From assembly GCA_048886185.1 (NCBI GenBank), contig JBHLKY010000001.1, forward strand, positions 130,436 to 194,435: DNA of 64,000 bases. Direction: 5' to 3'. Both the position numbers and the translations under genes were made by a program. Below, piece by piece: positions 3,911 to 36,219 of this stretch. The notes beneath the pieces were generated by a model. The model was not told where the DNA came from. It did not search any database and was given only the letters and a program-made list of their open reading frames with translations. This DNA comes from Candidatus Hermodarchaeota archaeon (lineage in GTDB: Archaea; Asgardarchaeota; Heimdallarchaeia; Hodarchaeales; Hodarchaeaceae). Each line of letters starts with the position of its first letter. The stretch's first letter is position 1.

Positions 3911-4942
3911 ATGAAAACTAAATTCAATGTGGTTCAAGTGGGACTCGGAGCAATGGGACGACGAATATCACAGGCATTGATAGAACGGGAGAATATAGAT
4001 TTGATAGGGGTGGTCGATATTGATCCAAGTCTGGAAAATAAGGTCTTGAGTGAGATTTTAGAACAAACAAATATCCCTGAAATAAGAATTGAAAAAAACC
4101 TCGAACAACTTCTGAATAAAAAAAAGGTCGATGTAGTGATAATTTTAACATCTTCTTCTTTAGAGAAGGTTGCTCCACTCATAATGATTGCAGTAAAAGC
4201 TGGTTGCAATGTAATCTCCATTTGTGAAGAATTATCATACCCCTTTGAATATCATCCCCAGCTTTCTAGAGACATTGATGAGCTAGCTAAAGACAATAAC
4301 GTATCTGTAGTTGGGACAGGTATTAATCCAGGTTATTTAATGGATTTATTGCCCATTGTATTGACCGCTCCATGTTTAACTGTTCAGAAAATTACTATAA
4401 CTCGAATGATGAATTCAGCAAAAAGAAGGTTACCTTTTCAAGAAAAGATTGGAACTGGTTTATCAGTTGATGAATTCAAACAAAAAATCAACAATAAAGA
4501 AATAACTGGCCATGTTGGACTAACACAATCTATTCAGATGATAATGTCCGCTTTGGGTTTGATGAGTGATGAAATTATTGAATTTCCTCCTGAAGCAATT
4601 ATTGCAGAAAAGGAAATCACAACTTCTTATTGTACCACACCACCAGGGTTTGTATGTGGACTTCAAAGTAAAGCAGTGGCCAGAAAAGATGGAAATGATC
4701 TAATTGTATTGAATTTCACTGCTTTTGCAGGAGATCAAGAAGAATTTGATAGTGTTATTATTGAGGGAAATCCTCAAATTTCACAAAAAATCGAGGGAGG
4801 AGTTCATGGAGACATAGGTACTGTTGCTATGGTAATTAATCTAGTACCAAAGGTTTATGATGCCAAGTCTGGTTTACTCACAATGAAAGATATATCAGTA
4901 CCTTGTAATACTGAGGGTATTTGGAAAAATCAGGAAAAATAG
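3911..4942 (+). CDS. NAD(P)-binding dehydrogenase, DapB-N-like (diaminopentanoate dehydrogenase-like)
   Basis: N-terminal Rossmann 'VVQVGLGAMGRRI' resembles the DapB GxxGxMG loop. The product is 343 aa. Confidence 0.4.
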   Translation: MKTKFNVVQVGLGAMGRRISQALIERENIDLIGVVDIDPSLENKVLSEILEQTNIPEIRIEKNLEQLLNKKKVDVVIILTSSSLEKVAPLIMIAVKAGCNVISICEELSYPFEYHPQLSRDIDELAKDNNVSVVGTGINPGYLMDLLPIVLTAPCLTVQKITITRMMNSAKRRLPFQEKIGTGLSVDEFKQKINNKEITGHVGLTQSIQMIMSALGLMSDEIIEFPPEAIIAEKEITTSYCTTPPGFVCGLQSKAVARKDGNDLIVLNFTAFAGDQEEFDSVIIEGNPQISQKIEGGVHGDIGTVAMVINLVPKVYDAKSGLLTMKDISVPCNTEGIWKNQEK

Positions 4943-4958
4943 GGTTTGGTCGTTACAT

Positions 4959-5264
4959 ATGAGAACTAAAATTATTGCAGAAATTACGACATATCCAATC
5001 GGAGAAGGCTCCAGTTTGAGTAAATTTGTTAAAGAAGCCGTCAAAGAGATAAACAACTATAAAGGAATCCGTGTTATTCATCATCCAATGGGCACAGTAA
5101 TCGAGACCGATTCTCTTGATCAAGTATTTGATGTAACAAAGTTGGCTCATGAAGCCATATTACGAACTGGTGCGAAACGCGTCGTTACTCAACTTAGAAT
5201 CGACGATCGCAGAGATAAACCAAGGAAAATGGAAGATAAAGTAGCTGCGATCTTAAAAGACTAA
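4959..5264 (+). CDS. MTH1187/YkoF-family (DUF77) small ligand-binding protein
   Basis: 101 aa. 'IAEITTYPIG...IRVIHHPMGTVIE' matches the MTH1187/YkoF thiamin-binding fold family. Confidence 0.55.
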   Translation: MRTKIIAEITTYPIGEGSSLSKFVKEAVKEINNYKGIRVIHHPMGTVIETDSLDQVFDVTKLAHEAILRTGAKRVVTQLRIDDRRDKPRKMEDKVAAILKD

Positions 5265-5290: not shown

Positions 5291-5668
5291 TTATTCAGGT
5301 GCTTTTTGATCTACTGGGCTTTTCTTAGTGGTTCCACGTTCTATCCCTACTAGAACTATTTTTAGCGATTTAGTATATTTTTTCAATGCTTTTCTCCCTT
5401 CACTAGTTATGTGGACAACAGTTCTGGGACGGACATTCACAAAAGTCTTTTCCTGTTCCACAAAACCTACAGAAACAAGTTTAGTTAAGTGACTATTTAA
5501 ATTTCCTGATGTTACACCTAGTCCTTTTTGTAATACACTAAAGGTGAGTGATGAATTGAGATGTAGTAATGTTAATATTCCTAATCGCACTGGTTCATGA
5601 ATGGTAGAATCCAGTCCTCCGAGTAGGTTTTCCAGATAAGCTGGATTCTCTTCCATTTCAATACTCAT
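5291..5668 (-). CDS. ArsR/winged-helix transcriptional regulator
   Basis: 'VRLGILTLL...FSVLQKGLGVTSGNLNSHLTKLVSVGFV' is an HTH plus wing pattern. The gene is coupled (6-nt gap) to the upstream membrane-protein gene. Confidence 0.55.
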   Translation of the reverse strand: MSIEMEENPAYLENLLGGLDSTIHEPVRLGILTLLHLNSSLTFSVLQKGLGVTSGNLNSHLTKLVSVGFVEQEKTFVNVRPRTVVHITSEGRKALKKYTKSLKIVLVGIERGTTKKSPVDQKAPE

Positions 5669-5673
5669 CTCTA

Positions 5674-6378
5674 CTATTCTGCAGTTTCTACTAGGGCAAT
5701 ACCTTCTCTACCAGAATACCAGTATGTAAGCATACTAATTCCAATTAAAACAAAGCCAAATATATTACAGAAAAGAAACATTGCTGAATTGGGGTCTAAC
5801 TCATAGAATATTAAAGATGAGACAAATCCAAGGCATAAAGCGAATAATCCAAATGATAACAAGCCTAATCGTACTTTCACATTTCTCGTTTCTGCAAAGA
5901 GAATTCTACTTGCAAGTAAAAATCCAATCCCTGTGGTGGTACCCCATACAATAGGAATAAACTGGGAATTCATTGAATCTACAACACCAAGCACCAAAAC
6001 AAGAAAATGAGTAATAATGAACAATCCAACAATGATTGCTCCAATGGTTCGATAAGCTTTGTTCCAATTTATGAATCCTGGGGAGAAACCTGTTGTAAAA
6101 ATAATGACACCAATCAGAGGAATAAGATAAATAAACCACAAGCCAAAAAATAGAACTGGTTCGAGATTTGGAGCTAATCCAAGAATGAGGAATGTTGAAT
6201 CAACAGCTAAGAAGTAGTAACAAACATATTCAATCCAGCCACCAATGATAGCTACGAAACCAGTAAGACTTATGAAAAGTAAAAGGCGATTTGATTCCAT
6301 TTTTTCTTCAAAAGCAACAATTTTATCTAAAATTTCAAGAGTTGGCTGTAAATCTGATAGTAACTCCATTTCTATCAT
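5674..6378 (-). CDS. polytopic membrane protein of unknown function (about 6 TM)
   Basis: Hydrophobic helices run throughout. It is co-oriented and coupled with the ArsR-like gene. Confidence 0.5.
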   Translation of the reverse strand: MIEMELLSDLQPTLEILDKIVAFEEKMESNRLLLFISLTGFVAIIGGWIEYVCYYFLAVDSTFLILGLAPNLEPVLFFGLWFIYLIPLIGVIIFTTGFSPGFINWNKAYRTIGAIIVGLFIITHFLVLVLGVVDSMNSQFIPIVWGTTTGIGFLLASRILFAETRNVKVRLGLLSFGLFALCLGFVSSLIFYELDPNSAMFLFCNIFGFVLIGISMLTYWYSGREGIALVETAE

Positions 6379-6609: not shown

Positions 6610-7221
6610 TTGAATGGTGTAATTGTTTTGATAATTGATTCTATTATTTTTATCTTCCCAGCATTCGTTGCAAATGCTGCACCTACGATATTAGGTAAAG
6701 GTAAGCGCTTCAATGGACCTATTGATGGTGGAAGATTGTGGAAAGACAACAAAAGAATTTTAGGAGATGGTAAAACGATCCGAGGATTTGTTTCTGGAGT
6801 TTTCTGCGGAATGTTGACATGTGTTGCGATCATTATTCTTGGAAACTATACTGGTTATCCTTTGGTTTTTATGACCTACATGAAAGGAGGCCTTCTTTAC
6901 AATGTTTTAAAGCCATTAGATACTGCTATTTTGGACAATATGATACTCTTAGGATCATTAATTGGTTTTCTTCTTGGTTGTGGCGCTCTCATTGGTGACA
7001 TAATTGGAAGTTTTATAAAAAGACGTAGTGGACTCAAAAGAGGAGAATCCTATCCTTTAATGGATCAATTAGGTTTTTTAGTTACAGCACTGATCCTTGT
7101 ATATTTAGTAATCCCTTGGCCTGTCATTTGGCTTATATTTCTGGTGCCTATCAGTCTTGGTCTTCATATCAGTCTAAATTTGCTAAGTTATGTAGCTGGT
7201 GTCCAAGAAGTCCCACTCTAA
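6610..7221 (+). CDS. carS: CDP-archaeol synthase-like (CarS/DUF46) membrane protein
   Basis: 203-aa membrane protein with 'ANAAPTILGKGKRFNGPIDGGRLWKDNKRILGDGKTIRGF', which resembles the CarS cytidylyltransferase signature. Confidence 0.5.
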   Translation: MNGVIVLIIDSIIFIFPAFVANAAPTILGKGKRFNGPIDGGRLWKDNKRILGDGKTIRGFVSGVFCGMLTCVAIIILGNYTGYPLVFMTYMKGGLLYNVLKPLDTAILDNMILLGSLIGFLLGCGALIGDIIGSFIKRRSGLKRGESYPLMDQLGFLVTALILVYLVIPWPVIWLIFLVPISLGLHISLNLLSYVAGVQEVPL

Positions 7222-7444
7222 TTAATTCTCTTGGATTAGTATAATTCAGGTTTTAAAAGCAGTAGGGAGGATGAAACTTTCTCAAGTTGTTTAAAGCAAT
7301 ACTAAATCACTCATACTATTTTTTATAATTTATATAGCTAATATAATATTTTGGTTAGTTTCTACCACAAAGTAATTTCTTGTAGAAAGGTTCATCGGGT
7401 TTTTTAAACTCATAGATTCAAATTCACCTATAATTTTCTCAAAA

Positions 7445-7882
7445 GTGGGTGAAAAGAAGATGAACTTTTTGGCACATCTGATAGTGACATTAGTCTTTGT
7501 GAAAATAGCTGATTTATCGGGAATGAATATCTTTTGGGCTTTAATGTTCGGGGTGTTTATTGATTTTGATCATTTAATTAAACTACCTCTTTATATCAAG
7601 CAGAATGGTTTTAAAATAGTTAGGTACTGGAATTGGCGAACAGGGTTCCAGGAACCTGTCTCATTGTTATGGATTATACCTTTGAATATTTACATTCATA
7701 CATGGGTACCTGTATTCTTTTTCATAACTCATATTGTCTTAGATTATTTGATGAGTTATGAAAAGCAACCATTTTACCCTTTCTCTAGTTTTACTATCAA
7801 ACAACGGAAAATAAAGCTTGATGATTCTCTTGGAATAGTAACAGTGGTGATAGCAATATGCATATACGTATTCCTGGTTTAA
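7445..7882 (+). CDS. small membrane protein (possible DUF457-like membrane hydrolase)
   Basis: 3-4 TM helices and an 'FIDFDHL' motif. Weak. Confidence 0.3.
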   Translation: MGEKKMNFLAHLIVTLVFVKIADLSGMNIFWALMFGVFIDFDHLIKLPLYIKQNGFKIVRYWNWRTGFQEPVSLLWIIPLNIYIHTWVPVFFFITHIVLDYLMSYEKQPFYPFSSFTIKQRKIKLDDSLGIVTVVIAICIYVFLV

Positions 7883-8409
7883 AGAAACGATATGACCAAA
7901 TAATGATGCCAATAAGCGATTTCTTTCATATGACTTTGAAGTTACAGCCAAATCACGTATCTTGTATTGGATTTTTGATTGGACTTTTTTCTGTGATTTT
8001 AGTCCTCGGCGGTTATTGGCAAGCTGGATTAATAATAATGGCAGTTTCCCTCCTTTTTGACGGAATCGATGGAAATATTGCACGATTATATAGTTTAGAA
8101 AGTGAAACAGGAGAAAAACTTGAACTTCTATTTGATCGTTCTCTAGAAACGCTCTTGTTTTTAGCCTTTGCAATAGTTAATGGCATTAATTTTGGATTAG
8201 TCTTCTTAGTTATTTATTCCATCTTGCTTATGACATCATTGAGAGATAAGGCGAAATTTGATCCTGGATTAAAGAGAATTGCATTATTTCTGGGATTTAT
8301 CATTAGTTTTGAGATGATTTTCAATATTGTCTTTCTTGTACACATCGGTTCTTTCATGCTTCAAATCATAATCTTAGATTATGCAAATCAGAGAGGAGTA
8401 GGGGTTTAA
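7858..8409 (+). CDS. CDP-alcohol phosphatidyltransferase
   Basis: 'DGIDGNIARLYSLESETGEKLELLFDRSLE' fits the D-G-x2-A-R-x8-G-x3-D-x3-D signature on a membrane protein. Confidence 0.6.
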   Translation: MHIRIPGLKKRYDQIMMPISDFFHMTLKLQPNHVSCIGFLIGLFSVILVLGGYWQAGLIIMAVSLLFDGIDGNIARLYSLESETGEKLELLFDRSLETLLFLAFAIVNGINFGLVFLVIYSILLMTSLRDKAKFDPGLKRIALFLGFIISFEMIFNIVFLVHIGSFMLQIIILDYANQRGVGV

Positions 8410-8440: not shown

Positions 8441-8612
8441 TTAGAGGTGAAAGTGATATTTCTCGTTCTTAGTATTGATGAAGAAAAATGTTCATGGAAT
8501 TATATGAATGGAAATTATTTCCAAATTGTGAACTGTAATTATCTTTATAAGTTAAAGTTCCCAAATATGGTATATTTTTCTGTCCTAAGTTTTTACTCTC
8601 TTCAATCATTGA

Positions 8613-9929
8613 ATGAAAGATGAAATACTTGAGAATAAAGGGATTATTTTGAAAAATATTTCATTTAAGCACAAATTTTGCATATTTTTGATCGGCTTAT
8701 TGATTATTTGTATATTGAGTAGAATAAAAGAGAATCAGGGATTATTAAATTCGATAAGTTACTCTGATGGGGATTCTATATTTTGTAAATCATTAAATCC
8801 TAAAGTGACCGAACAAAATATCCCTGAAAGAGGATTTAACGATCATACTTATGAATTGATCCCGATTAGACGAAGTTGGTCAGCTGCTAGAGATGATTGT
8901 GAATCCCGGAGAGGACATTTAGTGACTATTACAAGCCAAGGAGAGAATAATATGGTAAGACACTTGATTGAATATGAAAGTGTTTGGATTGGTTTTACTG
9001 ATGAAGGAATTGAAGGGAGTTGGCGATGGATTACTGGGGAGTCTGTTACCTATATTAACTGGGCTGACGGCGAACCCAACGACAGTGGTGGTGAGGATTA
9101 CGTTGAACTTTACGAGAGTGGTGAATGGAATGATTTGTCTGGTTTAGAGGAGTTGTACTATATATGCGAATGGGATTCTACACACAATATAACAACTCCC
9201 ACAGTAATTTTCCCAAATGGGGGAGAAACTCTTGAAGGCATCATCAATGTTCTCTGGTCAGCATCAACCGATTCGTATGATCATCATGATGTCACCTATA
9301 AAGTTTCTTATTCCATCGATAATGGAGTTAATTGGAATCTAATAACTAAAGAAGTAGTTGCCACTAATTACGAATGGGATACCAGTACGATTCCTGAAGG
9401 AACTTCATTTCTGATCAAAGTAGTTGCAAAGTGTTCTCAAGGAAAAAATGTAGAGGATATCTCCGATGGTTCGTTTTTTGTGCATTATCTCACAAGGCTA
9501 ACGCTTCTGTCTCCTCATCAAGGTGATCGACTGAGAGGTATCAGTATTCTTAAATGGTCAGAATCAACTGATTCCTTAGGATATGCAGTCACATACTCAG
9601 TATTCTTTTCTATAGACAACGGGATGACCTGGGATTCATTAGTTACAGGGTTGATGACAAATAATTACAATTGGAATACATCAAAATTTGCTGATGGAAG
9701 ATATAAGATAAAAATTAGGACAATTAGTTCAGAGGGTCTAACTACTGAATACATTACTGAAGGGACATTTCTAATTGATAATATTCTAACAGATATTACA
9801 CTTATTGTACTTGGATTAGCACTCCTCATGATTTTTCCAGAATTGTTCTTCAGTAGAAAACTCAGCAACGTTCTTAGTCGTAAAAGAATAGAGATTGTTG
9901 AGAGAGAAGAAGGAGTGGGACAACCATGA
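8613..9929 (+). CDS. membrane-anchored C-type lectin domain protein with two tandem Ig/Fn3-like domains
   Basis: N-terminal TM; CTLD at about aa 82-187 ('WSAARDDCESRRGHLVTITS', 'WIGFTD', 'WADGEPND', 'EWNDLSG', 'YYICEW') with EPN (nt 9072-9080) and WND motifs; two beta-rich repeats of about 95 aa; C-terminal TM. Its stop overlaps the next start (ATGA at 9926-9929). Confidence 0.7.
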   Translation: MKDEILENKGIILKNISFKHKFCIFLIGLLIICILSRIKENQGLLNSISYSDGDSIFCKSLNPKVTEQNIPERGFNDHTYELIPIRRSWSAARDDCESRRGHLVTITSQGENNMVRHLIEYESVWIGFTDEGIEGSWRWITGESVTYINWADGEPNDSGGEDYVELYESGEWNDLSGLEELYYICEWDSTHNITTPTVIFPNGGETLEGIINVLWSASTDSYDHHDVTYKVSYSIDNGVNWNLITKEVVATNYEWDTSTIPEGTSFLIKVVAKCSQGKNVEDISDGSFFVHYLTRLTLLSPHQGDRLRGISILKWSESTDSLGYAVTYSVFFSIDNGMTWDSLVTGLMTNNYNWNTSKFADGRYKIKIRTISSEGLTTEYITEGTFLIDNILTDITLIVLGLALLMIFPELFFSRKLSNVLSRKRIEIVEREEGVGQP

Positions 9930-12900
9930 TTGAATCTGAAAAAAGAGCTAAGGAACTTGAAGAATTCACACCTATTGAACCAATATATCATGAAAATTTA
10001 ATTCGGAATTTGGTTCGATTTGCATCTTTGATAGTAATTGGACTTCTAGTAGGACAACCTGCACAAAACTATCTTCCAGAAATTTATCCAACCATATTAC
10101 ATCAGATGTTGGTCTTTACTCTTTTGATAGTTTTTCTCGTTGGGCTATTCTTTACATTTTCGCAGTTACGTTGGTTTAATGAAAAAAGAAACAAGTCAAC
10201 CAATTTAGGAGGGACTATGGGTTTATTTGGACTATTTCTAACACTCATTTGTAGTGTACTTTCATTGCTTACTGTTTCATCAGCAGTTCTTATCCCTCTA
10301 CTTGGTATAGGACTGTTTTTAACATTCTTAGGGTTCTTTATAGAGACAACTCGCATAGATGAACCATTGGTATATTGGTTCAGAATGAATCTGGAGGTTA
10401 TTATACGCTATTCGATAACGGGAACTGGAGCCTTTTTGATCAACTGGAGTGTATTAATGACAATTTTGCTCTTCTTGGGATATTCGGGTATATTACCACC
10501 TTTCTATGTCTGGCCTGGAGATTCAATTGGAGGATTATTATTAGGGAGTATTGGTTTGGTTCTTGTCTGGGGTTCTTGGTATCATAGAATCACTCAAACA
10601 CTCTGGAAATATCGGATTGAAATCATTAGAACAATCGAGTTAAGTATCAGTCAGGGTCTAATCCTCATAGCACTAATAGGTCCATTCTTAAATCCGGACT
10701 TTCTTCTATACAGCTCCATTTTAGGCATCGCAGGATTAGCAGTAATATATCTAGACCTATACATATTTAAAAAGAAGGTTTTTAGTAATTTTTCCAGCGG
10801 ATTTATATCCTCTAGTCAGGTTTATGCCTCTATCATTGGTCTAATCTTCATTCTTTATGGACTAATCTTGATTCAGCAGCCTAATTGGCGATATTTCACG
10901 ATCTATCTTTATGTAATGGGATGCTTGCTGCTCTACAGAGTCTGGTTTGATAAAACCAATTACACAATAAATCGTTCTGCTCAAATCTTCGTTTGGTTTT
11001 TCCGAACTCATTATAGAGAGGTTATTACCTCTTTTTGCTTTGTCTCTATGGCTTTAGGATCTTTTTTATTTGGATTCACAAGATTGTTTTTAAGAATTAA
11101 TGATTTTTTTGATCCTGTACCTTTAGGGTTATTTCTAGTTGGTTACGCAATTGGACTAGTGGTTTGGTATATTCCAAGTCGTCATACATACTATCGAGGT
11201 ATGACAACGTCGTTAAATTTCTATTTGTTGTTATGGGGAATTTTCCTTTTTATTTTCCTCTTGCAGATAGATTCTAATGATATGATACCTTATGTGATTT
11301 CAACTACAATGTTTGTTATGGGGATGAGTGTAAACGTATGGCTTTGGAAAAGAGAAATATACAATTCAACTAAAAATACACTTATCACAATAAAAAACAC
11401 AATTTTTCAAACAATTCATGTTGTTGCCCAGTTCTTCAAAACATATTACCGTGAATTATTAACTATTGGAATTCTAAGCCTTATAACATATGGACTTGTT
11501 GTAACGTGGAGTACAGTCATTCACCCTCCCTATTGGCCATTCTTGTTTTTGATAACTGGTTATGCTATGCTTTTAGCCATCTGGCGCTTTCCTAACCGTC
11601 ATGACTATTTTCGTGGAGTGACAACAACTCTTAGTACCGTAATGATCCTTTTTGGCTTAGTATTAGTATTTTTCCAGGATTATCAATCTATCATTTGGCT
11701 TTCTGGTGGAATAATCATTATTGGTGTTGTAGTCAATGGAGCAGCGTGGCAAACGGAACTTAAACTGCTATTAATTCAAACTGCTACTGCTATCAAGAAC
11801 GTAATTGTCCGAACTGGCGTAACATTGAGAAATTTCTTTATCACTGTTAAAAATGCATTTATCCAAACTATTCATGCTCTTATTCACTTTATCGATAAAT
11901 CCCTCCATACTATCTGGGACTATCGCGTTCCTCTCATGAGGTCGATCATGACAACTATTGGTGCAATTCTAGCCATCACAGGTTTTTTATCATGGATTTT
12001 AAATTACGTATTCGACATAACTTGGATCTCTGGTCTTGAACCTTCGTTCTTGATATCTGGTATGATCCTTCTTTATATAGCTTGGTTCTATCAAGTTAAC
12101 CAGATTGTTAAGCAATCCGCTATTGCTATTCGTAATGGACTTGTCCACGTTTTTCATATTATCGCGGACTTCCTTGTGGCCGCTAAGAATACTGTCATAG
12201 TTGTTTCTCACTATATCTGGGATCACCGTGTTGACATTTTAAGAGCTCTCGTAACAATGATTGGTATTGTTTTGATCTCTACTGGGATTATTCCAGCAGA
12301 TCTAATTGATATTGACTCAAATATGAAATTAGTATTAGTAATTGGAGGTATAATTGTATTGTATTTATCCTGGCTCCAACCAGTAAACCATTTCCTCATA
12401 AAAACCTTGATTGCAATTAAAAACTTCTTTGTTGCTGTTAAGGACGCCACTATCCAGTTTATTCAAACAGCTATCCAATTTCCTGTAAATACATATCGAA
12501 AAATAGTTAATTTTCTCCAAAAATACTATATTGAAATAATTCGCTATTCTGCTACAACTATTGGGGGCTTCTCCATTTTCTTTGGGTTTTGGGGAACATT
12601 GAGGCAGGAACCGTTTGGGCTACTCATTCTTATTGCAGGATTGGCTATCCTTTATGCTGCTTGGTTCCATCATGTCAATCAATTTATTATTAGAACAATC
12701 CAGTCCATAAAGGATGCCATAATCCACGCTGCTCACGCTATTGCTAATTTTCTCCAGAATGTCAAAAATGCAATTATGCGAACTTTTTCCGCAATTGGAT
12801 CTTTCATGCAAAAAATAGCAATCCAACTGAACCAATTACTCCGTTCTATTGTAGATTTAATTATCCCAATATTTCTTCTGATTTTGTCAATCTCGGCGCT

Positions 12901-13252
12901 TTTCTATGGTATCATTCTAATTTTGTCTGGAGTATTTGATCCGACTGGAGCTCTTTTTAGTGATCTTCTTCTTCCAATTCCTCTTTTTGGAGATCTTTTG
13001 GATTTTCTTGCTCGATTGCTTCAGGGAGAAATCTATGAAGGGAATATCCTAGGTGTTTTTGCTAATCAAGACCCCATATTTCAAATTCTGGTTGGTATAG
13101 GCATTATTATATTCGGTGGTGTTGTATTTTTATTTGTGGCGCTAAAGAAGGAGAAAATGAGAATTAGATCCCTTTTGAAGGCTGATGAAACGTATTCTCA
13201 AGCAACACTTGATAAAGAAGAGGTTAATGACCTTGATGGTGGTAAAAAGTGA
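9926..13252 (+). CDS. giant (1108 aa) polytopic membrane protein with about 5 internal repeat modules
   Basis: A soluble charged N-terminus is followed by more than 20 predicted TM helices. There are recurrent amphipathic modules '..AIKNxxVxxxxxxxNFFxxVKNAxIQTIHxxxxF..' (about 5 copies) and repeated 'W(Y/R)(I/F)P(S/N)RH(T/D)Y(Y/F)RG(M/V)TT' segments. It is translationally coupled on both sides. Confidence 0.6.
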   Translation: MIESEKRAKELEEFTPIEPIYHENLIRNLVRFASLIVIGLLVGQPAQNYLPEIYPTILHQMLVFTLLIVFLVGLFFTFSQLRWFNEKRNKSTNLGGTMGLFGLFLTLICSVLSLLTVSSAVLIPLLGIGLFLTFLGFFIETTRIDEPLVYWFRMNLEVIIRYSITGTGAFLINWSVLMTILLFLGYSGILPPFYVWPGDSIGGLLLGSIGLVLVWGSWYHRITQTLWKYRIEIIRTIELSISQGLILIALIGPFLNPDFLLYSSILGIAGLAVIYLDLYIFKKKVFSNFSSGFISSSQVYASIIGLIFILYGLILIQQPNWRYFTIYLYVMGCLLLYRVWFDKTNYTINRSAQIFVWFFRTHYREVITSFCFVSMALGSFLFGFTRLFLRINDFFDPVPLGLFLVGYAIGLVVWYIPSRHTYYRGMTTSLNFYLLLWGIFLFIFLLQIDSNDMIPYVISTTMFVMGMSVNVWLWKREIYNSTKNTLITIKNTIFQTIHVVAQFFKTYYRELLTIGILSLITYGLVVTWSTVIHPPYWPFLFLITGYAMLLAIWRFPNRHDYFRGVTTTLSTVMILFGLVLVFFQDYQSIIWLSGGIIIIGVVVNGAAWQTELKLLLIQTATAIKNVIVRTGVTLRNFFITVKNAFIQTIHALIHFIDKSLHTIWDYRVPLMRSIMTTIGAILAITGFLSWILNYVFDITWISGLEPSFLISGMILLYIAWFYQVNQIVKQSAIAIRNGLVHVFHIIADFLVAAKNTVIVVSHYIWDHRVDILRALVTMIGIVLISTGIIPADLIDIDSNMKLVLVIGGIIVLYLSWLQPVNHFLIKTLIAIKNFFVAVKDATIQFIQTAIQFPVNTYRKIVNFLQKYYIEIIRYSATTIGGFSIFFGFWGTLRQEPFGLLILIAGLAILYAAWFHHVNQFIIRTIQSIKDAIIHAAHAIANFLQNVKNAIMRTFSAIGSFMQKIAIQLNQLLRSIVDLIIPIFLLILSISALFYGIILILSGVFDPTGALFSDLLLPIPLFGDLLDFLARLLQGEIYEGNILGVFANQDPIFQILVGIGIIIFGGVVFLFVALKKEKMRIRSLLKADETYSQATLDKEEVNDLDGGKK

Positions 13253-14433
13253 CAGTTAATAGAAAGAGATCGAAAGAAAAATCAGATGATATAGCTAAAA
13301 TCCCAAACATCTCTCTCGATCAGGAGAAAGAAGCAAGGGGTAAACGTCTCCAGGAAGCATCATTTTCGGAACTTGTCTCATTTTCAAGATTTACACTAAT
13401 AGCAATCTGCATATTTATACTAGCTTTAATAATTTCAATTATTCTCCAATATAGCCCACTTGAAAACCCTGGACGATACGTAACTGGAATTATAGGGATT
13501 TCAATTCTTATCCTGCTCCTTAGTTTAATCGTTGATATTCTACGTTGGAGAGATTATACCGAATGGGGAGCTTTGGGAGCTTTAATCTCCTATGGTGGAA
13601 TTCTCCTAATTTTCATGCCACTTTCTCTCAATATGGTGATCCTGATCGAAGATGTTACTTTCCTGGTTCCATTCTTTGGAGAATTTAGCTTATATCTAAT
13701 AATCATTATTTTAGGTGTCGTCATTTTTACTATTGGATTCACTTCTAGAGCCACTGAACTTGACCACAAAATTGAAAACCTTCTCTTTATAATGAAGCAA
13801 TGGATAACTACATTTGCTTTTCGACAATTCTTTCGAACCCTTGGAGAGTTTATTCTAACATTTATTAGTGGATTTTTCAGGTATATTGGGAGGGGAATCC
13901 GAGAATTGAGAACTCGTATAGCAAGGCTTCTTAGATGGACAACACGATCTTTCATTTTCTTTTTAACCTCCATCAAGGATTTCTTTTACCATACCTTCCC
14001 CCAGATACTAAAACGATCATTGATCGGATTTTGGAACAATTTTCATTGGCTGGGATTAATTGCTGTTATCGTCTATGTTATTCTGACTGATATTCCTATT
14101 CCAAATATTGATCCTTTTCTTATCAAAGCAGAGCTACTTATTGTTATTGGTTTTTTCTTTTGTCTTGGGATCCTTTACCCTCAGAAAGACCGTTTTGCAC
14201 TAATTGCTAAGGGTATGAGGAGCTCTGTTCTTAGTAGAGTGATAAGTGCTTATAGTATGCTCTCAGGAACCAAAATAGAAATGGACAAAGCTATTTTCTG
14301 CTCTAGATGTCTTAGAGGGGTTGAAGTTAGAGAATTTGAATCCCTCATGGAAATTAAAGGGATGATAGATCCACCCTGCCCGTTTTGTGGATTTAATAGT
14401 TGGATTGGATCTGAAAAAGTGTCTATCCCTTAA
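13249..14433 (+). CDS. membrane protein with a C-terminal CxxC...CxxC zinc ribbon (GTG start)
   Basis: The GTG start overlaps the upstream TGA. There are multiple TM helices and a C-terminal 'CSRCLRGVEV...CPFCGF'. Confidence 0.5.
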   Translation: MTVNRKRSKEKSDDIAKIPNISLDQEKEARGKRLQEASFSELVSFSRFTLIAICIFILALIISIILQYSPLENPGRYVTGIIGISILILLLSLIVDILRWRDYTEWGALGALISYGGILLIFMPLSLNMVILIEDVTFLVPFFGEFSLYLIIIILGVVIFTIGFTSRATELDHKIENLLFIMKQWITTFAFRQFFRTLGEFILTFISGFFRYIGRGIRELRTRIARLLRWTTRSFIFFLTSIKDFFYHTFPQILKRSLIGFWNNFHWLGLIAVIVYVILTDIPIPNIDPFLIKAELLIVIGFFFCLGILYPQKDRFALIAKGMRSSVLSRVISAYSMLSGTKIEMDKAIFCSRCLRGVEVREFESLMEIKGMIDPPCPFCGFNSWIGSEKVSIP

Positions 14434-14535
14434 GACAAGCTTTTGCAAAAGGAGAAACTCGAAGTTCCCACTATTCCAAAACCTCATCCAAAAGAATCTA
14501 TTTCTCCTTCTGAAATAGTAATGACTGATGAATAG

Positions 14536-15948
14536 AAGAAAGCTATTAAAAAAGGTCACTTTCCTGATTATCAATCATATCAGCGGGCACAGAACCTCGG
14601 AGCACAGACTCACTCTGAAGTGGAGTTCATCGATCGCCTTGGGGCCCCGAATTTAGCTATAGCTGAAAAAATCAAAGCAGGGGGATTTTCTCATTTTGAA
14701 ACATACCAAAAAGCTCAGGCTGTTGGTGCTTCTACTGCCTCGGAATTATCTTTGATAACAGAATTGCAAGCTCCTGATTTAGCTACTATGAAAGAAATTC
14801 AGAAAGGTAAATTTCCTGATTTTCCATCTTATCAACGAACGTAGAATCTCGGAGCTTCAACCTATTACGAACTAGAAGTTATTGATCACCTTGGAGCCCC
14901 TAATTTTAAAACTGTTGAGAAAATTAAAAATGGAGGATTTCGTGATTATAAAAATTATGAGAAAGCTTTGGCGGTTGGAGCTTCCAATATATCTGAATTG
15001 CGTATAGTAAAAAAATTCAATGCTCCAGATCTGAGTACTGCGAGAAAAATTCAGAAAAGGAGATTTCCAGACTATCAAACGTTTAAACGAGCTCAGGATC
15101 TGGGAGTGCAAAAGTATTCTGATTTAAGAATCATTGATCGTTTTAAAGCTCCAGACCTTGAGACAGCGAAGAAAATCATTGATAGCGGTTTCTCTACTCT
15201 TGAAACTTATCAAAAAGCTCAAACTATTGGTGCTTCCACTTTCTCAGAATTAAAATTAATTGAAAAATTACAAGCTCCTGATTTAGCTACCACGAGAGAA
15301 ATTCAGAGCGGAAATTTCCCTGATTATCAAACCTATCGACAGGCACGAAGCCTTGGAGCACGAACTTACTCTGAACTACAGTTAATGACTAAACGACCAA
15401 CTATCAGTGCTGATGTTGAAGTACAATCTGCACAAGAAAAAATAAGCTCCAAGAGAGTGATAGAAGAGATTAGTGCGGAAGTAGGAACCCAGACATTGAT
15501 CACAAAGAAACTGCAAGACGAAAGATTATTCCCAATTGATGAAGAGGCAATCGAAGTTTCATCAAAGATTGAAGAGCCACAAAAAGAAGTACAGGTTTCT
15601 GTCCCTGACATAAGAGATGAATCACTTATCAGGAAAAGAGATGCTCCTGCTGAAGAAATACCAAGTACAGAACGAAAAATTTCGAAAAAAGAAGTTCCTG
15701 TAAAACAAGTAATCGAGATAATTGACGTATTCTTTGCTTCTGATTTGTTAGTAACATCAGAAACCCAAGATAAATGGGACATGCATAAAAAGGAGTATTA
15801 TCGTCAACGAACGTTATTCCTTGACTTTGGAGAGCTCAGTGAATCCTCCTTTAGGTCTTATCTTCAGAAATTGAGAATGTTTTTCACTCAGGAAATGGGT
15901 ATTCAACACGACAAATTATTCAAACTAGACGTAGAAGACACTGAATAA
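14536..15948 (+). pseudogene. 42-aa tandem-repeat protein gene interrupted by an in-frame TAG (no ATG start; possibly disrupted or non-canonical)
   Basis: One frame is open from 14536 to 15948 apart from TAG at 14842-14844, which replaces a conserved Gln of the repeat. The frame is continuous with upstream gene 13249-14433 across TAA 14431-33 and TAG 14533-35. There is no in-frame ATG before repeat 7. Confidence 0.4.
14560..15390 (+). repeat. about 6.6 copies of a 126-nt (42-aa) tandem repeat in perfect register
   Basis: Repeat units start at 14560, 14686, 14812, 14938, 15064, 15190 and 15316. Consensus is 'FPDYQTYxxAQxLGAxTYSELxLIxxLxAPDLxTAKKIQxGx'. Confidence 0.8.
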
Positions 15949-21190: not shown

Positions 21191-22699
21191 ATGAAATCCT
21201 CATTCAATAATAAAATGGATCTCAATGATGAAACCAAGGCATTTTTTAACTTTATTACGCATCCAACTAAATTAGAATCATTAATCATGTTAGAACAGCT
21301 TATTAAAGACACTAAGGATGAAAATCTAAGATGTTTCTGGAAAATACTTTCAGATAAAAATCTAGAATGTTTTAGACTTACATGTAAAGAAAATAATACA
21401 TCTAAGGAAGTATATTATATTGATCTTGAAACTCCGATATTATTTTATCCTGTATTCCAGAATCACATCTCTTTAAATATTGCCTCGAATTTTTTTTCTC
21501 TAGCGAGTAAAATTAAGTCAAATTTATTGAATTTCTATAGTCAAGAAGTCGAAAGTTCTTTTATTTTAATAAAAAAAGGTACAACTGAAAAATTGGTTGA
21601 TTCTTATACTTTTAAAGTAGAAGATCAGGATATCAAATTGTTACAAAGGTCTAATCTTTATAGATCTAGGAGAAAAGAAATATCCCAAAAGAATTTAGAC
21701 AATTTTCTTAAGAATAACGAGTCTATGTTAAATAATAGATTAAAAAAAGACGAAGGGGTTTATGCTTCGCTTGGAGATCATTTGTTATTTAAATCAGATA
21801 GTTTAAATCTTCAAAATGGCAAAAAGCGCTTTCCTGTTGGTCAACGAAACCCCAAAAATCGCTTGAATCTGTTAACGGGGAGAGAATGGATAAAATTTTC
21901 TAAAACATGGTTTATTCATCGTCCTCCATCACGAAAAGATGAAGAATTTTTACATCCTGCTAAATTCCCTGAGACACTTATTAGAAAGTTTATCACCTTT
22001 TTTACAAAACCAGGTGAATTAGTGCTAGATCCATTTCTTGGTACTGGAAGCGCGCTCATCGCTGCTAAACAGAGCAACAGGAGTGGAGTGGGAATTGAAC
22101 TCTCTCCTACTTACGCTAAAATTTCTAAAAACCGTTTAAAAGGAATAAATTCTCTATTATATCCCCCTTTATACCAAACTGATGAATCATGCTTTTGGAA
22201 GGTTATTTGTGGAGATTCTAGGAATTTAAATGACTACTGGGAGGATTTTAATTTACCAACTGTTGATTTTTGTATCACGAGCCCTCCTTATTGGAATCAG
22301 CTCCAACGAAATACTATTCGACAAAGGAAACGAAAACATGAGGGCTTAGATACACAATATAGTTATGATGATCCAAAGGATTTAGGGAACATTGATAATT
22401 ATAACAACTTCCTAAGTGAACAACAGAAAATATTTGGTAATGTTTACGAAATTCTACGACCTAATGGATACTTAGTCATAATCACAAATCATGTTTTTAC
22501 AGATGGACAGGTTTATCCCTTAGCTTATGACACAGTATCTAGTTTAATTAATGATAAAAAACATAATTGGATACAAAAAGATGAAAAAATATGGTTACAA
22601 GATGATAAGTCCTTGGTGGCATTAGGGGTAAATTATGCTTGGGTTGGAAATAGGTGCCACCAGTATTGTCTTATTCTAAGAAAAGAAGTATCAAACTAG
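21191..22699 (+). CDS. DNA methyltransferase (N4-C/N6-A, SPPY type) with a 240-aa N-terminal domain of unknown function
   Basis: 'HPAKFPETLIRKFITFFTKPGELVLDPFLGTGSALIAA' (AdoMet motif I region) precedes 'ITSPPYWN' (motif IV) by about 80 aa. This is a permuted order relative to beta-class enzymes. No adjacent nuclease gene. Confidence 0.7.
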   Translation: MKSSFNNKMDLNDETKAFFNFITHPTKLESLIMLEQLIKDTKDENLRCFWKILSDKNLECFRLTCKENNTSKEVYYIDLETPILFYPVFQNHISLNIASNFFSLASKIKSNLLNFYSQEVESSFILIKKGTTEKLVDSYTFKVEDQDIKLLQRSNLYRSRRKEISQKNLDNFLKNNESMLNNRLKKDEGVYASLGDHLLFKSDSLNLQNGKKRFPVGQRNPKNRLNLLTGREWIKFSKTWFIHRPPSRKDEEFLHPAKFPETLIRKFITFFTKPGELVLDPFLGTGSALIAAKQSNRSGVGIELSPTYAKISKNRLKGINSLLYPPLYQTDESCFWKVICGDSRNLNDYWEDFNLPTVDFCITSPPYWNQLQRNTIRQRKRKHEGLDTQYSYDDPKDLGNIDNYNNFLSEQQKIFGNVYEILRPNGYLVIITNHVFTDGQVYPLAYDTVSSLINDKKHNWIQKDEKIWLQDDKSLVALGVNYAWVGNRCHQYCLILRKEVSN

Positions 22700-23647: not shown

Positions 23648-25777
23648 TTATCCTTCATTCCTTTTCTTTATTGGTGTTTCAATTAGTGATAACATTTCTC
23701 TTAACAACTCAGTAATTTCATCATGAGCTCCAATAATAAACTTCATACTACCCACTAATTCGTGCCCTCCCCCTTCTATTCCTGCTTTAGGGAGCTTTTT
23801 TGAACAATTTGAAACCAATTTGGGGAAATCTAATTGTACATTTTGAGAGCGGAAAATAGCAAAATCAGGGCCTAAGCCTATAGTTACAAGAGGAGATTCT
23901 AGATCTTTTTTTGCTAGATGATCGAAAAGAGAACCTGTTATTTTTCCTGGAGGTGGGTAATCGAATCTACTAGCATATTTCTCGACATCTAATATTGCTA
24001 AATGAATTCCATTCACTAACTTCTCTTCTTGAACATATTCTAGAGATATTTGTAACTGATTTTCAAGATGTTTACGAGCCTCATTTGATAAAAGCCTAAC
24101 ATAATTAATTTGTTTCTCCTGTTTTCCCTGTAGCCCTAAAAGATCGCTTAGGAGAAGACGTCCTGGTGAGAATTTTAAAAAATAGGCTTGGTAATCAACT
24201 GCTACAGCAATATCTTCTAGAAAATTCTCTGAATAATCCTTTTCTATAGCAATTGTTAAGTATTGGTTTAATTCGTCCCCTGATACACGATCACCTTTTC
24301 CTGCGATAGCTGGGAGATGGCTTATAGTGTCAGTGATATTAGGTTCAATTTGTCTGGCTAATTCACAACCTAACATTCCAGTACATATATTATAGTCGCC
24401 ACCAACAAAATAAACATTTAGATGAGTATCAATAGTATTTTGAATAATACTTGAGGGAAAATGATGATCAATGACTATAATTTCTATTTCATATGATTTT
24501 AGTAAATTGTATGAGAATAAACTTTCCTCACTGCTTCCTGAATCTAAAATTACAATCAAAGGTATTTTATCACCGAATCTATCCTGATCTGATAGCGCGA
24601 AATCAAGATCTCTAATTGCATCAATGGGATCATAAAAAGGAGGTTTATTAGGCGTTCTCTTAACTAGGTGCCTTAATTTTTCCTCATCTGTATCAAATAG
24701 TTGAAACCAAAGTTCTCGACATGCTGTCTCTAATGCAATTCCTGCAACAATTCCATCACAATCATTATGATGTCTAATTATCACGGGTTGTAATTCTAGT
24801 AATGCTCGGCGAATTCTTTTTGCTATACTAACAAATTTTTCTTGTAATAAGTCCAGTGTTTCAGATTTTATCATAAAATCGACTTTCGGGGGTTCACTTC
24901 GCGATTCAAGTAGATTTTCCATCTTTTGAGTAAATAAATTGGCATAAGTCTCATCAACGATGAAAATATCGGAAATCTCAATTTGTTCTGAATCTCTGTG
25001 ATGTGTGTATTCTCCCATAACTTCAACGATGTCTCCAACTTTGATTTCCTCCGCAAACTCAAGATGAAATGCTGCAGCTTCTATCACACCTGTTTCATCT
25101 AAGAGGGTAAGAATTTTCGGCCCCCGAGGAATTTGATGAATGTTCTCAATCCTTGCGTGAATTGAGAAAAAAGTCCCAACTTCACGGTCTGTATTGATTT
25201 TCTGAAAAGGAACAACGTCATGGACACGTTTCCTTAAAATTTTGGAAGTATCTCTAATAGGTACCTCCAGAAATTCTAGCTTCTCACCTTTCTTATTTTT
25301 AAGTTTAACAAATAAGGGATCCCCTTTATTTCCCTCAAACTGTTTATTTCTAATTAATCCCTCTACTTTTGGTGTCAGTTGAACAAAAAATCCAAAATCA
25401 GTATTTTTAACCATTGTGGCAGAGTAAACTTTCTTAAATTCTACTGTAGCTGATGAAGCAGGGGGAATCAACTCAAAAATAACTGGATTTTTTTCACACA
25501 TCTCACATAGCTGTATTCCAGCTGGTATATTTTTCTCACAAACAATACACTGATTTTTCTTTGTTCCTGTTCCTTTACATACAGGACAGGTCTTTTCAAT
25601 CGATTTTAATATCTGACCTGATCCTGAACAATCGGAACAGGCATTCTTCTTTGATGGTTTAGAACCTACTATAATTTTTGTTGAACCCATTCCATGACAG
25701 GTTGGGCATTTAATCTTGCGTTCACTAGAGATTTTTCCCGTTCCAGAACATTTGGGGCACTTTGAAAGTGAAGACAT
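23648..25777 (-). CDS. RecJ-like DHH/DHHA1 phosphoesterase with N-terminal DnaJ-type zinc finger and OB folds
   Basis: Four perfect CxxCxGxG repeats (CPKCSGTG, CPTCHGMG, CSDCSGSG, CPVCKGTG) plus an extra CxxC...CxxC ribbon; two OB/S1-like segments; DHH motifs 'HHNDCDGIVAG' and 'IVIDHHFP'; DHHA1 'GGGHELVG'. Confidence 0.65.
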   Translation of the reverse strand: MSSLSKCPKCSGTGKISSERKIKCPTCHGMGSTKIIVGSKPSKKNACSDCSGSGQILKSIEKTCPVCKGTGTKKNQCIVCEKNIPAGIQLCEMCEKNPVIFELIPPASSATVEFKKVYSATMVKNTDFGFFVQLTPKVEGLIRNKQFEGNKGDPLFVKLKNKKGEKLEFLEVPIRDTSKILRKRVHDVVPFQKINTDREVGTFFSIHARIENIHQIPRGPKILTLLDETGVIEAAAFHLEFAEEIKVGDIVEVMGEYTHHRDSEQIEISDIFIVDETYANLFTQKMENLLESRSEPPKVDFMIKSETLDLLQEKFVSIAKRIRRALLELQPVIIRHHNDCDGIVAGIALETACRELWFQLFDTDEEKLRHLVKRTPNKPPFYDPIDAIRDLDFALSDQDRFGDKIPLIVILDSGSSEESLFSYNLLKSYEIEIIVIDHHFPSSIIQNTIDTHLNVYFVGGDYNICTGMLGCELARQIEPNITDTISHLPAIAGKGDRVSGDELNQYLTIAIEKDYSENFLEDIAVAVDYQAYFLKFSPGRLLLSDLLGLQGKQEKQINYVRLLSNEARKHLENQLQISLEYVQEEKLVNGIHLAILDVEKYASRFDYPPPGKITGSLFDHLAKKDLESPLVTIGLGPDFAIFRSQNVQLDFPKLVSNCSKKLPKAGIEGGGHELVGSMKFIIGAHDEITELLREMLSLIETPIKKRNEG

Positions 25778-32287: not shown

Positions 32288-32322
32288 TGATTATTTTCGA
32301 TCCAAACTAGGATGGACTCTGA

Positions 32323-34443: not shown

Positions 34444-34501
34444 TAATCCTAATGACAAGTTTTTAAACAAAACAAACAATTTACAAATAGAAGTGAGCTT
34501 G

Positions 34502-35155
34502 ATGACTGGAGAATACTTTGGGCAATTATTAAAGGATAAGGACATTCATAAAAAAGGAACAGAGTTATTTGTTAAGCTTGTTGAATCACTAGAAGAAGCT
34601 TATGATAAATTCGAAAAAGCATTGAAAGCATGGCGAGGAGGTGACTTTGAACGAGGTTTCATGTTACGTGATGAGGTAATTCAACTGGAGAGAGATGCAG
34701 ACAAAGTAAAGGATATTTTTTTTGAAACAATTTTCAAAAAAAAGGCATATCTCCCTCAGATAACAGAGGAGCGTTATAACATGATGTTGAATGCTGATCG
34801 CTTATTGGATCGGATCGAAAGAGCAGTTAGAATCGTTTGTGTGAAAAAAATTGATGCTAGTTATTTCCCTCCAGAACTCGATCGGATAATAGATTTAACT
34901 GAAGATGTTATTGAAGATTTCGTAGAAGCCAATAAACTATTTTTCAGTGACTTTGAAAAGGCATCAAAGCTCGCACGTAAGGTAGAGGAGAAGAGGGATG
35001 AAGTACGTGATCTTTTTTACATTATTTCAGAAAAAATAGTTAATGACGAACTCCCACGAGGTACAAGTAGAATACTAGATGCTACTACTCGTATTAGCGT
35101 CGAAGCAGAGCAAGGTTCAGATTATTTAAAAGTTCTTATAGCTAAACATAGTTAA
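34502..35155 (+). CDS. DUF47 / PhoU-like phosphate transport regulator
   Basis: A helical protein, 'VIQLERDADKVKD...' and '...VEEKRDEVRDLF', classically paired with PiT. The ORF-track start at 34370 overlaps the upstream gene and is not used. Confidence 0.6.
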   Translation: MTGEYFGQLLKDKDIHKKGTELFVKLVESLEEAYDKFEKALKAWRGGDFERGFMLRDEVIQLERDADKVKDIFFETIFKKKAYLPQITEERYNMMLNADRLLDRIERAVRIVCVKKIDASYFPPELDRIIDLTEDVIEDFVEANKLFFSDFEKASKLARKVEEKRDEVRDLFYIISEKIVNDELPRGTSRILDATTRISVEAEQGSDYLKVLIAKHS

Positions 35156-35175
35156 TCGATAGAAGGTGTAATACC

Positions 35176-36219
35176 TTGACCGCACTGATTATTATAGGTG
35201 CCGCTCTTCTTCTTGGTTTCGTTGTCGCATTCACCATTGGAGCCAACGATGAAACAATGACTCCAGCAGTAGGTGCTGGTTTACTCTCGTTGAATATTGC
35301 TGTCCTAATTGGTGGTCTATTTAATTTCATTGGTGTATTCTTTCTAGGAGAATCTGTTTCCAAGACTGTTGGTAATAAATTCACTACTCCCAATTATAGT
35401 CTTTCTCTAACAATGGTGTTTGTAGTACTTCTCTCAATGGCACTTTGGCTATTCATCGTATCCTTGAAAGGAGTTCCTATCAGTACAACACAATCTGTTG
35501 TTGGGAGCGTTATAGGGGTTACCATCCTTGAATGGGGATTAATAGCTTTAAATTATGATACTCTCTTTTGGGTTCTACTCAGTTGGGTTGTCAGTCCTCT
35601 TATCGGGCTTGCTGGAGGTTATGCTTTTTACTCATTAATCATGAAAATCCGACAATCAGTTAAAACACAGGGTTACGCAGATTATGAGAGACAAGAAAAG
35701 ATAGCTTTTTATGCTTTGGCTGTTTTTTTACTCATTTCAGTATTTTCTCGAAGTGGAAATGATGTTGCTAAAGCTATTGGTCCCCTAATGGCGATTGAAG
35801 ATTTTGTAGTGGAATTATATATGATCGGACCAGTTCCTATTAGTGGACTATACTTAGCACTAATCGCAGGTGGTTCAGGAATGTGCCTAGGGGTAATTAT
35901 CCTTGGGCGAAGAGTTGTAAAGAAACTAGCCAGCGATATTGTAGCTTTATCTCCTACATCTGCGTTAGCGGCCAGTATTTCTGTCAGTTTAATCATGTTC
36001 TTTGGTACATTATTAGCAATTCCATTATCGGGATCTCATATTTTAGTTGCAGCCTTTATTGGAGTTGGTTTCGTAAATAAAGAGAAAGTGGATAAAGAAA
36101 ATCTCAAAGAAATTGGAATAAGTTGGTTAATTACAACACCTATATCTGCGATCTTTTCTGCTATAATTTATGTGGTCTTCAACTTACTAGGGGAATTTTT
36201 TGTTGCACTTTATGGATAA
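35176..36219 (+). CDS. PiT-family inorganic phosphate (or sulfate) permease
   Basis: Two-fold repeat with 'GANDETMTPAVGAG' and 'SGNDVAKAIGPL' (GxNDxxNxxGP-like). TTG start preceded by 'aggtg'. Confidence 0.6.
   Translation: MTALIIIGAALLLGFVVAFTIGANDETMTPAVGAGLLSLNIAVLIGGLFNFIGVFFLGESVSKTVGNKFTTPNYSLSLTMVFVVLLSMALWLFIVSLKGVPISTTQSVVGSVIGVTILEWGLIALNYDTLFWVLLSWVVSPLIGLAGGYAFYSLIMKIRQSVKTQGYADYERQEKIAFYALAVFLLISVFSRSGNDVAKAIGPLMAIEDFVVELYMIGPVPISGLYLALIAGGSGMCLGVIILGRRVVKKLASDIVALSPTSALAASISVSLIMFFGTLLAIPLSGSHILVAAFIGVGFVNKEKVDKENLKEIGISWLITTPISAIFSAIIYVVFNLLGEFFVALYG

Follow-up and report, generated by a model that had tools for sequence, protein, structure and literature searches.

Piezo proteins are very large membrane proteins in which tandem transmembrane (TM) units, each with an intracellular amphipathic helix, are followed by a distinct C-terminal module; nine units of four TM helices, 38 TM helices in total, are combined with a pore module and a large extracellular cap. 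E3 ligases of the Hrd1/gp78 type work together with additional large membrane subunits, a feature that they have in common with the setting of the smaller of the two proteins described here. Both proteins are encoded in a 64,000-nucleotide (nt) stretch of DNA from Candidatus Hermodarchaeota archaeon (assembly GCA_048886185.1, contig JBHLKY010000001.1, positions 130,436 to 194,435), hereafter the window, which has a composition of ~35% G+C and contains no tRNA genes. The first gene (9926..13252, + strand) encodes an 1108-amino acid (aa) membrane protein in an uninterrupted open reading frame (ORF) with an ATG start, and the second (13249..14433, + strand), the start of which overlaps the stop of the first, encodes a 394-aa membrane protein with a zinc finger, referred to below as the partner. 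The large protein is a ~26-TM protein with both termini in the cytoplasm, in which an N-module of four TM helices is followed by ten TM hairpins of ancient duplication and by a C-module of two TM helices. The large protein appears to define a family not described before, and the pair is best classed as a two-gene module that is likewise new. On the basis of the architecture and the gene linkage, we tentatively favor a reading in which the large protein would be the large, platform-forming subunit in a membrane complex of two proteins, the other being its zinc-finger, ancestrally RING E3, partner.

Like Piezo, the large protein is very large and combines tandem TM units and amphipathic helices with a distinct C-terminal module; its unit, however, consists of two TM helices, present ten times, rather than four, it has 26 TM helices as opposed to 38, and the cap is lacking. 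The partner alone resembles Hrd1/synoviolin and gp78/AMFR, polytopic RING-H2 E3 ligases of the endoplasmic reticulum (ER), in that a multi-TM domain is followed by a cytoplasmic RING-H2-type finger. It differs from them in its TM domain, which is unlike any solved chain, and in the form found in the window, which keeps a four-Cys ribbon only; moreover, no eukaryotic protein corresponding to the giant hairpin-repeat subunit was detected in profile searches of 1.84 billion representative sequences and of the sequences in the Protein Data Bank (PDB), or with Foldseek against the PDB.

Reticulon and REEP proteins bend membranes by means of TM hairpins plus an amphipathic helix (PMC7835363). The large protein may resemble this class (Yop1, DP1) in its hairpins followed by an amphipathic helix at the cytoplasmic face, and its external exposure is similarly small; a shaping role is plausible. 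It has, however, ten hairpins in an 1108-aa chain where reticulon and REEP proteins have two, the length of each hairpin suffices to cross the bilayer, with acidic external loops, and the N- and C-modules, which are conserved, and the obligatory partner with a zinc finger set it apart. No match to the Pfam families Reticulon or TB2_DP1_HVA22 was found for the protein itself at E ≤ 1 or for 42 family members at E ≤ 0.1. The E1/E2/E3 ubiquitin operon of the Caldiarchaeum type encodes a small soluble RING finger E3. It resembles the partner in being a zinc finger of the RING type from an archaeal host whose ubiquitin system is eukaryote-like (PMC5654768); the finger of the partner, in contrast, is fused to a 6-TM domain, and its gene adjoins that of a giant membrane protein.

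Architecture of the large hairpin-repeat protein

The large protein is identical to ACFFB2_04610, a protein labelled "hypothetical protein" in the metagenome-assembled genome (MAG) of a Promethearchaeota archaeon. The initial annotation, made from the sequence without database searches, had described it as an 1108-aa polytopic membrane protein, and this is confirmed by 26 predicted TM helices (~26 by count), assigned from hydropathy and from the helices of the better of two AlphaFold2 (AF2) models, and by a very strong positive-inside pattern. Lys and Arg account for 67 of the 447 cytoplasmic residues versus 3 of the 127 external residues, which places both the N and the C terminus inside the cell. 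The external loops are acidic and 2–13 aa in length, with the sole exception of a conserved 46-aa loop between TM25 and TM26, and the non-membrane mass is almost wholly cytoplasmic, consisting mostly of amphipathic helices that link the hairpins. The AF2 runs gave a predicted local distance difference test score (pLDDT) of 55 and a predicted template modeling score (pTM) of 0.25 with 16 sequences, and a pLDDT of 68 and a pTM of 0.36 with 42 sequences; the helices are credible and their packing is not, and no conclusion was therefore drawn at the level of the fold.

The N-module (9998..10408, +; aa 25–161) contains TM1–TM4 and is the best-conserved region of the protein (conservation 0.70), with the two cytoplasmic motifs QLRWxNEKRNKSTNLGG and ETTRIDEPL being the best conserved of the cytoplasmic motifs. 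At the opposite end, the C-module (12857..13144, +; aa 978–1073) consists of TM25 and TM26 on either side of the lone sizeable external loop (aa 1005–1050), which is acidic and carries the conserved pattern DPxG...IPIxG...NLLGxFA.

The ten-hairpin array (10367..12688, +; aa 148–921) is formed by units U1 (aa 148–226), U2 (222–286), U3 (286–348), U4 (350–420), U5 (416–482), U6 (496–559), U7 (555–616), U8 (656–728), U9 (757–824) and U10 (857–921), the borders of which were set by anchoring on a conserved Arg preceding the first helix (helix a) and a conserved Trp following the second (helix b). The conserved unit is a TM hairpin of 62–70 aa in which helix a, with the pattern (Y/H)(Y/R)..R..TT.G, is connected by a short acidic loop to helix b, with the pattern G..LLY.AW...N. 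In the AF2 model, every helix b measures only 15–19 aa and ends at the conserved Trp, where the next helix, an amphipathic one, begins. The conserved positions in the repeat helices are Gly, Trp, Tyr, Thr and the interfacial Arg, and the family alignment contains no conserved charged or polar residues within these helices.

The internal repeats are highly significant. Self-comparison of the whole protein with BLAST returned the diagonal only; comparison of 80-aa pieces with the remaining protein gave E values down to 1.6e-13. When 100-aa blocks were aligned with hhalign to the alignment of the whole 16-sequence family, off-diagonal probabilities reached 99.8%, the strongest pairs being residues 402–500 with 541–634 (E 7e-28) and 751–850 with 639–754 (E 7e-25), with weaker, consistent matches extending back to aa 150–350. 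Against shuffles that preserve the hydrophobic/polar class of each residue, 13 of the 45 unit pairs scored z > 5 (maximum 13.6) and one further pair scored 4.7; together these links connect all ten units into a single network, unit 7 being joined to U5 (z = 9.3) and to U9 (z = 5.2). A hidden Markov model (HMM) of the hairpin unit found 3–16 copies in each full-length relative and none in shuffled family sequences. The number of units varies at one place in particular, as one to three extra units are inserted after query residue 749 in 13 of 16 relatives. No tandem repeat was found in the gene at the DNA level, and the duplication of the hairpins is thus old.

A five-fold module with an "AIKN" amphipathic stretch and a period of about 70 aa had previously been proposed as the repeat. 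Five such stretches do exist, and the five strings quoted for them were located at aa 485–504, 621–655, 733–760, 829–852 and 926–954; they are linkers, however, and it is the TM hairpin that is repeated, ten times. Nor does the shorter period hold, since the full repeat measures ~97–100 aa in units 8–10 and ~140 aa, or two hairpins, in units 4–7, which contain a 4-TM super-repeat. The segment RH(T/D)Y(Y/F)RG(M/V)TT recurs as described, in two copies at aa 419 and 558.

The cytoplasmic linkers, all on the + strand, are linker 1 (11348..11452; aa 475–509, TLITIKNTIFQTIHVVAQFF), linker 2 (11747..11941; aa 608–672), linker 3 (12083..12244; aa 720–773), where the extra units of the relatives are inserted, linker 4 (12371..12544; aa 816–873) and linker 5 (12662..12856; aa 913–977), which has the highest hydrophobic moment (0.45–0.58). 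Linker length varies between 15 and 65 aa: linkers of 54–65 aa are found only after units 7–10 and one of 35 aa before unit 6, and they are nearly absent otherwise. Hydrophobic moments range from 0.3 to 0.58; in shuffled sequences, the 95th percentile is 0.40 and the 99th is 0.49. The amphipathic character described in the initial annotation is clear in the last linker and moderate in the remaining ones. The linker segments have a pLDDT below 50 in the AF2 model.

As had been suspected, the protein lies outside the known transporter families. No match was found in Pfam (E ≤ 1), where nothing consistent emerged across the 42 family members either, or in NCBIfam; curated models of the transporter superfamilies in these two collections (MFS, RND/MMPL, ABC, APC and others) did not match, and Piezo was not matched in Pfam. 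The PADLOC anti-phage defense models matched neither the large protein nor the partner. A profile of the family compared with all PDB sequences returned a designed helical bundle at E 1.4 and nothing else, and Foldseek, run against the PDB with the low-confidence model of pTM 0.36, found no Piezo or transporter match (best E 0.41; query-normalized TM-score ≤0.11). Literature searches found no account of this family. The family is regarded as new because no covering family, structure or paper was found and the candidate families did not match.

A word-indexed search found 17 family proteins, and an exhaustive HMMER profile search of the 1.84 billion representatives gave 65 matches at E ≤ 1e-3, many of them fragmentary. 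All members with a named source come from MAGs assigned to Hodarchaeales, "Hodarchaeota", Heimdallarchaeota (including HeimC3_08870 and HeimC3_49340 of LC_3) or unclassified "Promethearchaeota", and a scan of GTDB species genomes yielded five loci, all in MAGs of these same groups. Full-length orthologues share 40–58% identity, invariant motifs and a conserved start. One relative, P0017, has an HMMER E value of only 4e-7, yet hhalign aligns it over the full length at 99.7%, which shows that the family reaches further than can be seen from the HMMER matches. The weakest matches are phage tape-measure proteins (E 1e-4 to 1e-3), which cover the amphipathic-helix region only. Kinship with these was rejected as compositional, the PhageMin_Tail/TMP domain being present in P0075 and P0076 and not in the query or the family.

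The partner and its zinc finger

A gene for the partner is located directly 3' of the large gene and on the same strand in the window and in 10 of 10 homologous loci (L001–L007 and L013–L015), the two genes overlapping or being separated by at most 83 nt. The encoded proteins are homologous membrane proteins of 348–1412 aa, and that of the window has six TM helices by inspection. A search with the partner alignment retrieved 14 proteins only, all from Hodarchaeales, with locus tags that adjoin those of members of the large-protein family. The N-terminal TM region of the partner is homologous to the N-module of the large protein (hhalign probability 87.5%, E 3.6e-6; 94.8%, E 5e-8 with deeper profiles), and the motifs LRW...LG(G/A) and IGF..(E/R)xT(R/E)(I/L)D are common to both. 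When the remainder of the partner (aa 175–345) was compared with the hairpin unit, no significant match was obtained (probability ≤3%), and a profile of the partner TM domain compared with all PDB sequences gave no membrane-protein match at E ≤ 10, Hrd1 and gp78 included.

The partner of the window ends in a zinc ribbon (aa 351–380) with an invariant CxxC-x22-CPxC pattern followed by a conserved Trp. Cys351, Cys354, Cys377 and Cys380 are its only predicted zinc ligands, fewer than the eight of a cross-brace RING. In six other partners (L005, L007, L013, L014, L015 and HeimC3_49330), a CxxC-x10-CxxC ribbon is followed by a RING-H2 pattern, C-x2-C-x12-C-x2-C-x4-H-x2-H-x3-W-x6-CPxC(R/K), which is invariant among the six. 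A profile of this RING region (A5) compared with the PDB matched Arkadia (E 3.9e-8), RNF165, EL5, RLIM, RNF24, RNF38, AMFR/gp78 and synoviolin/Hrd1. The partner of L007, the sole one scanned individually, scored 25.0 bits against Pfam zf-RING_2, under the cut-off of 27.3. For two other partners, P0088 and P0098, PF13639 is listed among the precomputed annotations. In a neighbor-joining (NJ) tree of the partner TM domains with midpoint rooting, the ribbon-only forms group in a single derived clade, with the RING forms at the base. This is consistent with the window clade having lost the second half of the RING, the ribbon being a truncated RING-H2.

The reading frame of the partner continues beyond its stop codon (14434..15948, +) into a region of ~44-aa tandem repeats and a C-terminal domain known from relatives. 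In-frame stops are found at 14431 (TAA), 14533 (TAG) and 14842 (TAG), and the whole frame from 13249 to 15948 matches partners of 913–1412 aa over ~770 residues (tblastn, single frame, 46% identity). Relatives have Gln at both TAG sites, which fits changes from CAG to TAG. The partner of the window is thus either truncated to its 394-aa membrane and zinc-ribbon part, left with a pseudogenized tail, or affected by an error of the MAG or its sequencing. Recoding of the stop codons was rejected as unlikely because the in-frame stops mix TAA and TAG, both of which are ordinary stops in the window. The tails of ribbon-type partners contain ~44-aa tandem repeats with the consensus RFPDYQTYxRAQxLGxxxYSELxxIxxxxAPDLxTAxKIxxG (14560..15400, +, in the window; 13150..14300 in L001), with up to ~10 copies in relatives and no match in Pfam or among PDB sequences.

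Gene neighborhood and other features of the window

Immediately upstream of the large gene lies a gene for a 438-aa surface protein (8613..9929, +), the stop of which shares 4 nt with the start of the large gene. The encoded protein begins with a signal or anchor and ends in a TM anchor, and it contains two Ig-like repeats and a clear C-type lectin domain (Pfam Lectin_C, E 3e-21), for which NCBIfam gives a weak match to the lectin region of polycystin. In relatives of this protein, the lectin is fused to long NosD-like β-helix arrays. A lectin or β-helix surface gene overlapping the start of the large gene is found in the window, L001 and L002 only and is therefore accessory, and more β-helix genes lie near the module in L001, L004 and L006. 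A TATA-like element, CTTTATAAG, is present at 8540..8552, ~65 nt 5' of the start of the lectin gene and within a 204-nt gap ahead of the three overlapping genes, and may act as an archaeal promoter of the unit they form (8613..15948).

Further upstream is a divergent pair of genes (5291..6378, −), of which 5291..5668 encodes a winged-helix regulator of the HTH_34 type and 5674..6378 a polytopic membrane protein of 234 aa. Genes for the regulator and for a polytopic membrane protein of 214–234 aa accompany the module in the window, L001–L004 and the distant L007. Between this pair and the operon, 6610..8409 (+) encodes a CDP-archaeol synthase (CarS), a YdjM-like membrane protein and a CDP-alcohol phosphatidyltransferase. 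A link to these lipid-synthesis genes was rejected as window-specific, as they are not at that position in the syntenic L001–L004, and so they represent a local insertion or rearrangement.

Genes for small GTPases of the Arf/Ras/Roc type are found within 1–5 kb, and at most 8 kb, of the module in L003, L004, L006 and L015. A gene pair for a ubiquitin-like protein and a ThiF/E1-like protein lies 4 kb downstream of the RING-type partner in L015, the only locus where such a pair is nearby (GTPase and ubiquitin context in L015 at 4606..5205, −, and 13659..15358, +). The GTPase linkage was rejected as not above chance, given the abundance of GTPases in Asgard archaea and given that L003 and L004 are syntenic and hence not independent; the GTPase and ubiquitin/E1 neighbors may be suggestive, at a level not beyond chance. 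MacB-type ABC and SDR neighbors are confined to close relatives, which indicates synteny and not function.

Elsewhere in the window, DNA methyltransferase genes are dense at 21191..22699, 29987..38422 and 47010..48962, with three N6_N4_Mtase and two Eco57I/N6_Mtase/MmeI-like proteins (502–766 aa), which suggests a restriction-modification or defense island. A 709-aa protein (23648..25777, −) combines an N-terminal DnaJ-type CXXCXGXG zinc finger with an OB fold and a DHH domain, and is predicted from these domains to be a nuclease of the RecJ/Cdc45 type, the zinc-finger head of which is unusual. A 1532-aa ORF (55598..60196, +), with a marginal DUF4785-like match only, encodes a large uncharacterized protein.

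A proposed two-protein membrane complex and its alternatives

In the two-protein complex that we tentatively favor, the homologous N-modules of the large protein and the partner would pair within the bilayer to form a heterodimer core, from which the hairpin array would extend as a long lipid-exposed platform. The short second helices (15–19 aa), the cytoplasmic belt of Arg and Trp and the amphipathic helices, if inserted into the cytoplasmic leaflet, would together locally thin or bend the membrane and organize it, and the zinc finger of the partner would connect the platform to cytoplasmic factors. In the RING-bearing lineages this factor would be E2~ubiquitin, and the pair would act as a membrane-embedded E3 on membrane-anchored clients. 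Because the RING is degenerate in the lineage of the window, the complex there would be a scaffold or adaptor only.

Several points weigh against this complex. With a pTM of 0.36 the three-dimensional model is not reliable, and that the N-modules pair, or that the array has the proposed shape, is conjecture. Instead of lying in the plane of the membrane, the amphipathic helices could pack together as a soluble bundle in the cytoplasm, and the conserved polar N- and C-modules could equally be a site of transport or enzymatic activity. The RING ancestry of the finger depends on the midpoint-rooted NJ tree. Finally, the partner of the window has four Cys ligands, an incomplete RING, and its long C-terminal part is broken by three stop codons; a role as a ubiquitin ligase can therefore not be applied unchanged to the pair in the window.

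An alternative that we consider unlikely is a stand-alone membrane shaper of the reticulon/REEP type, in which the hairpins and the leaflet amphipathic helices would serve as curvature wedges, at tubules, the bases of protrusions or invaginations, and the partner would merely regulate. The REEP/reticulon mechanism provides a precedent (PMC7835363), and ten hairpins with five amphipathic helices, a helix b of 15–19 aa in the AF2 model, minimal external loops with the mass on the cytoplasmic side, and a variable copy number, as expected of a modular scaffold, are all in keeping with it. The large protein, however, has no sequence relation to the Reticulon and TB2/DP1 families, and its hairpins of 39–47 aa with acidic external loops have the look of fully membrane-spanning elements and not of half-inserted wedges. 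Moreover, a stand-alone shaper leaves unexplained both the strict conservation of the partner and the fact that the N- and C-modules are the most conserved parts.

It is quite unlikely that the protein is a novel channel or transporter, including a mechanosensor similar to Piezo, with the repeat units and in-plane helices as a curved blade and the C-module as the pore. Its very large size, the repeated TM units preceded by amphipathic helices, the distinct and conserved 2-TM C-module and the 4-TM super-repeat of units 4–7 would all suit such a protein. Against this, neither a transporter nor Piezo was matched among the 42 members in Pfam and NCBIfam, or with Foldseek in the PDB, where the best E value was 0.41, the repeat helices are devoid of conserved charged or polar residues, and an external loop of 46 aa, the largest present, leaves no room for a cap domain.

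Distinctly doubtful, too, is an anchor or assembly platform for cell-surface proteins, on which co-transcribed, TM-anchored lectin and β-helix proteins would dock as on the base of an envelope. The 4-nt overlap of the upstream surface genes with the large gene in the window, L001 and L002, the β-helix genes near the module in L001, L004 and L006 and the conserved external loop of the C-module point in this direction, but no surface gene occupies that position in L003–L005, L007 or L013–L015, which puts it outside the core, and only 127 of the 1108 residues are external. That the ORF is non-functional or its repeats a compositional artefact of hydrophobic low-complexity similarity is effectively refuted: the tape-measure matches (E 1e-4 to 1e-3) do show that composition can yield weak similarity, but the repeats withstand pattern-preserving shuffles (z up to 13.6), shuffled family sequences give no HMM matches, and full-length orthologues of 40–58% identity retain invariant motifs, a conserved start and synteny.

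A bolder form of the two-protein complex, which we regard as a long shot on the sequence evidence, is that the pair would be an archaeal membrane-embedded ubiquitin-ligase machine of the RING type, in which a 6-TM RING-H2 subunit would be docked, by way of the N-module common to both, to a giant hairpin-repeat subunit whose role would be to thin or bend the bilayer and to present membrane-anchored clients, the version in the window being derived and RING-degenerate. If true, eukaryotic ubiquitylation of membrane proteins, and machinery of the ER-associated degradation (ERAD) type or the ER-shaping type, would have a prokaryotic analogue, or even a forerunner, in such a machine.

The Hodarchaeales and the Heimdall group of Asgard archaea include the archaeal order reported to be closest to eukaryotes. 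Lineage-specific proteins of unknown function are frequent in Asgard genomes, and the interest of the present family rests on its construction principle, its obligatory RING/zinc-finger partner and the phylogenetic position of its hosts. The family is restricted to this Hodarchaeales/Heimdall group and ranks among the largest membrane proteins of that lineage, and its tandem TM hairpins with cytoplasmic amphipathic helices follow a construction principle of eukaryotic membrane-shaping proteins. Membrane shaping and the handling of membrane proteins are central to models of eukaryogenesis. Should the pair turn out to work as an E3 complex bound to the membrane or as a scaffold for curvature, it would provide a directly testable candidate for pre-eukaryotic membrane remodeling or membrane-protein ubiquitylation; otherwise, the repeat family would still be new and well defined, and its partner clear.

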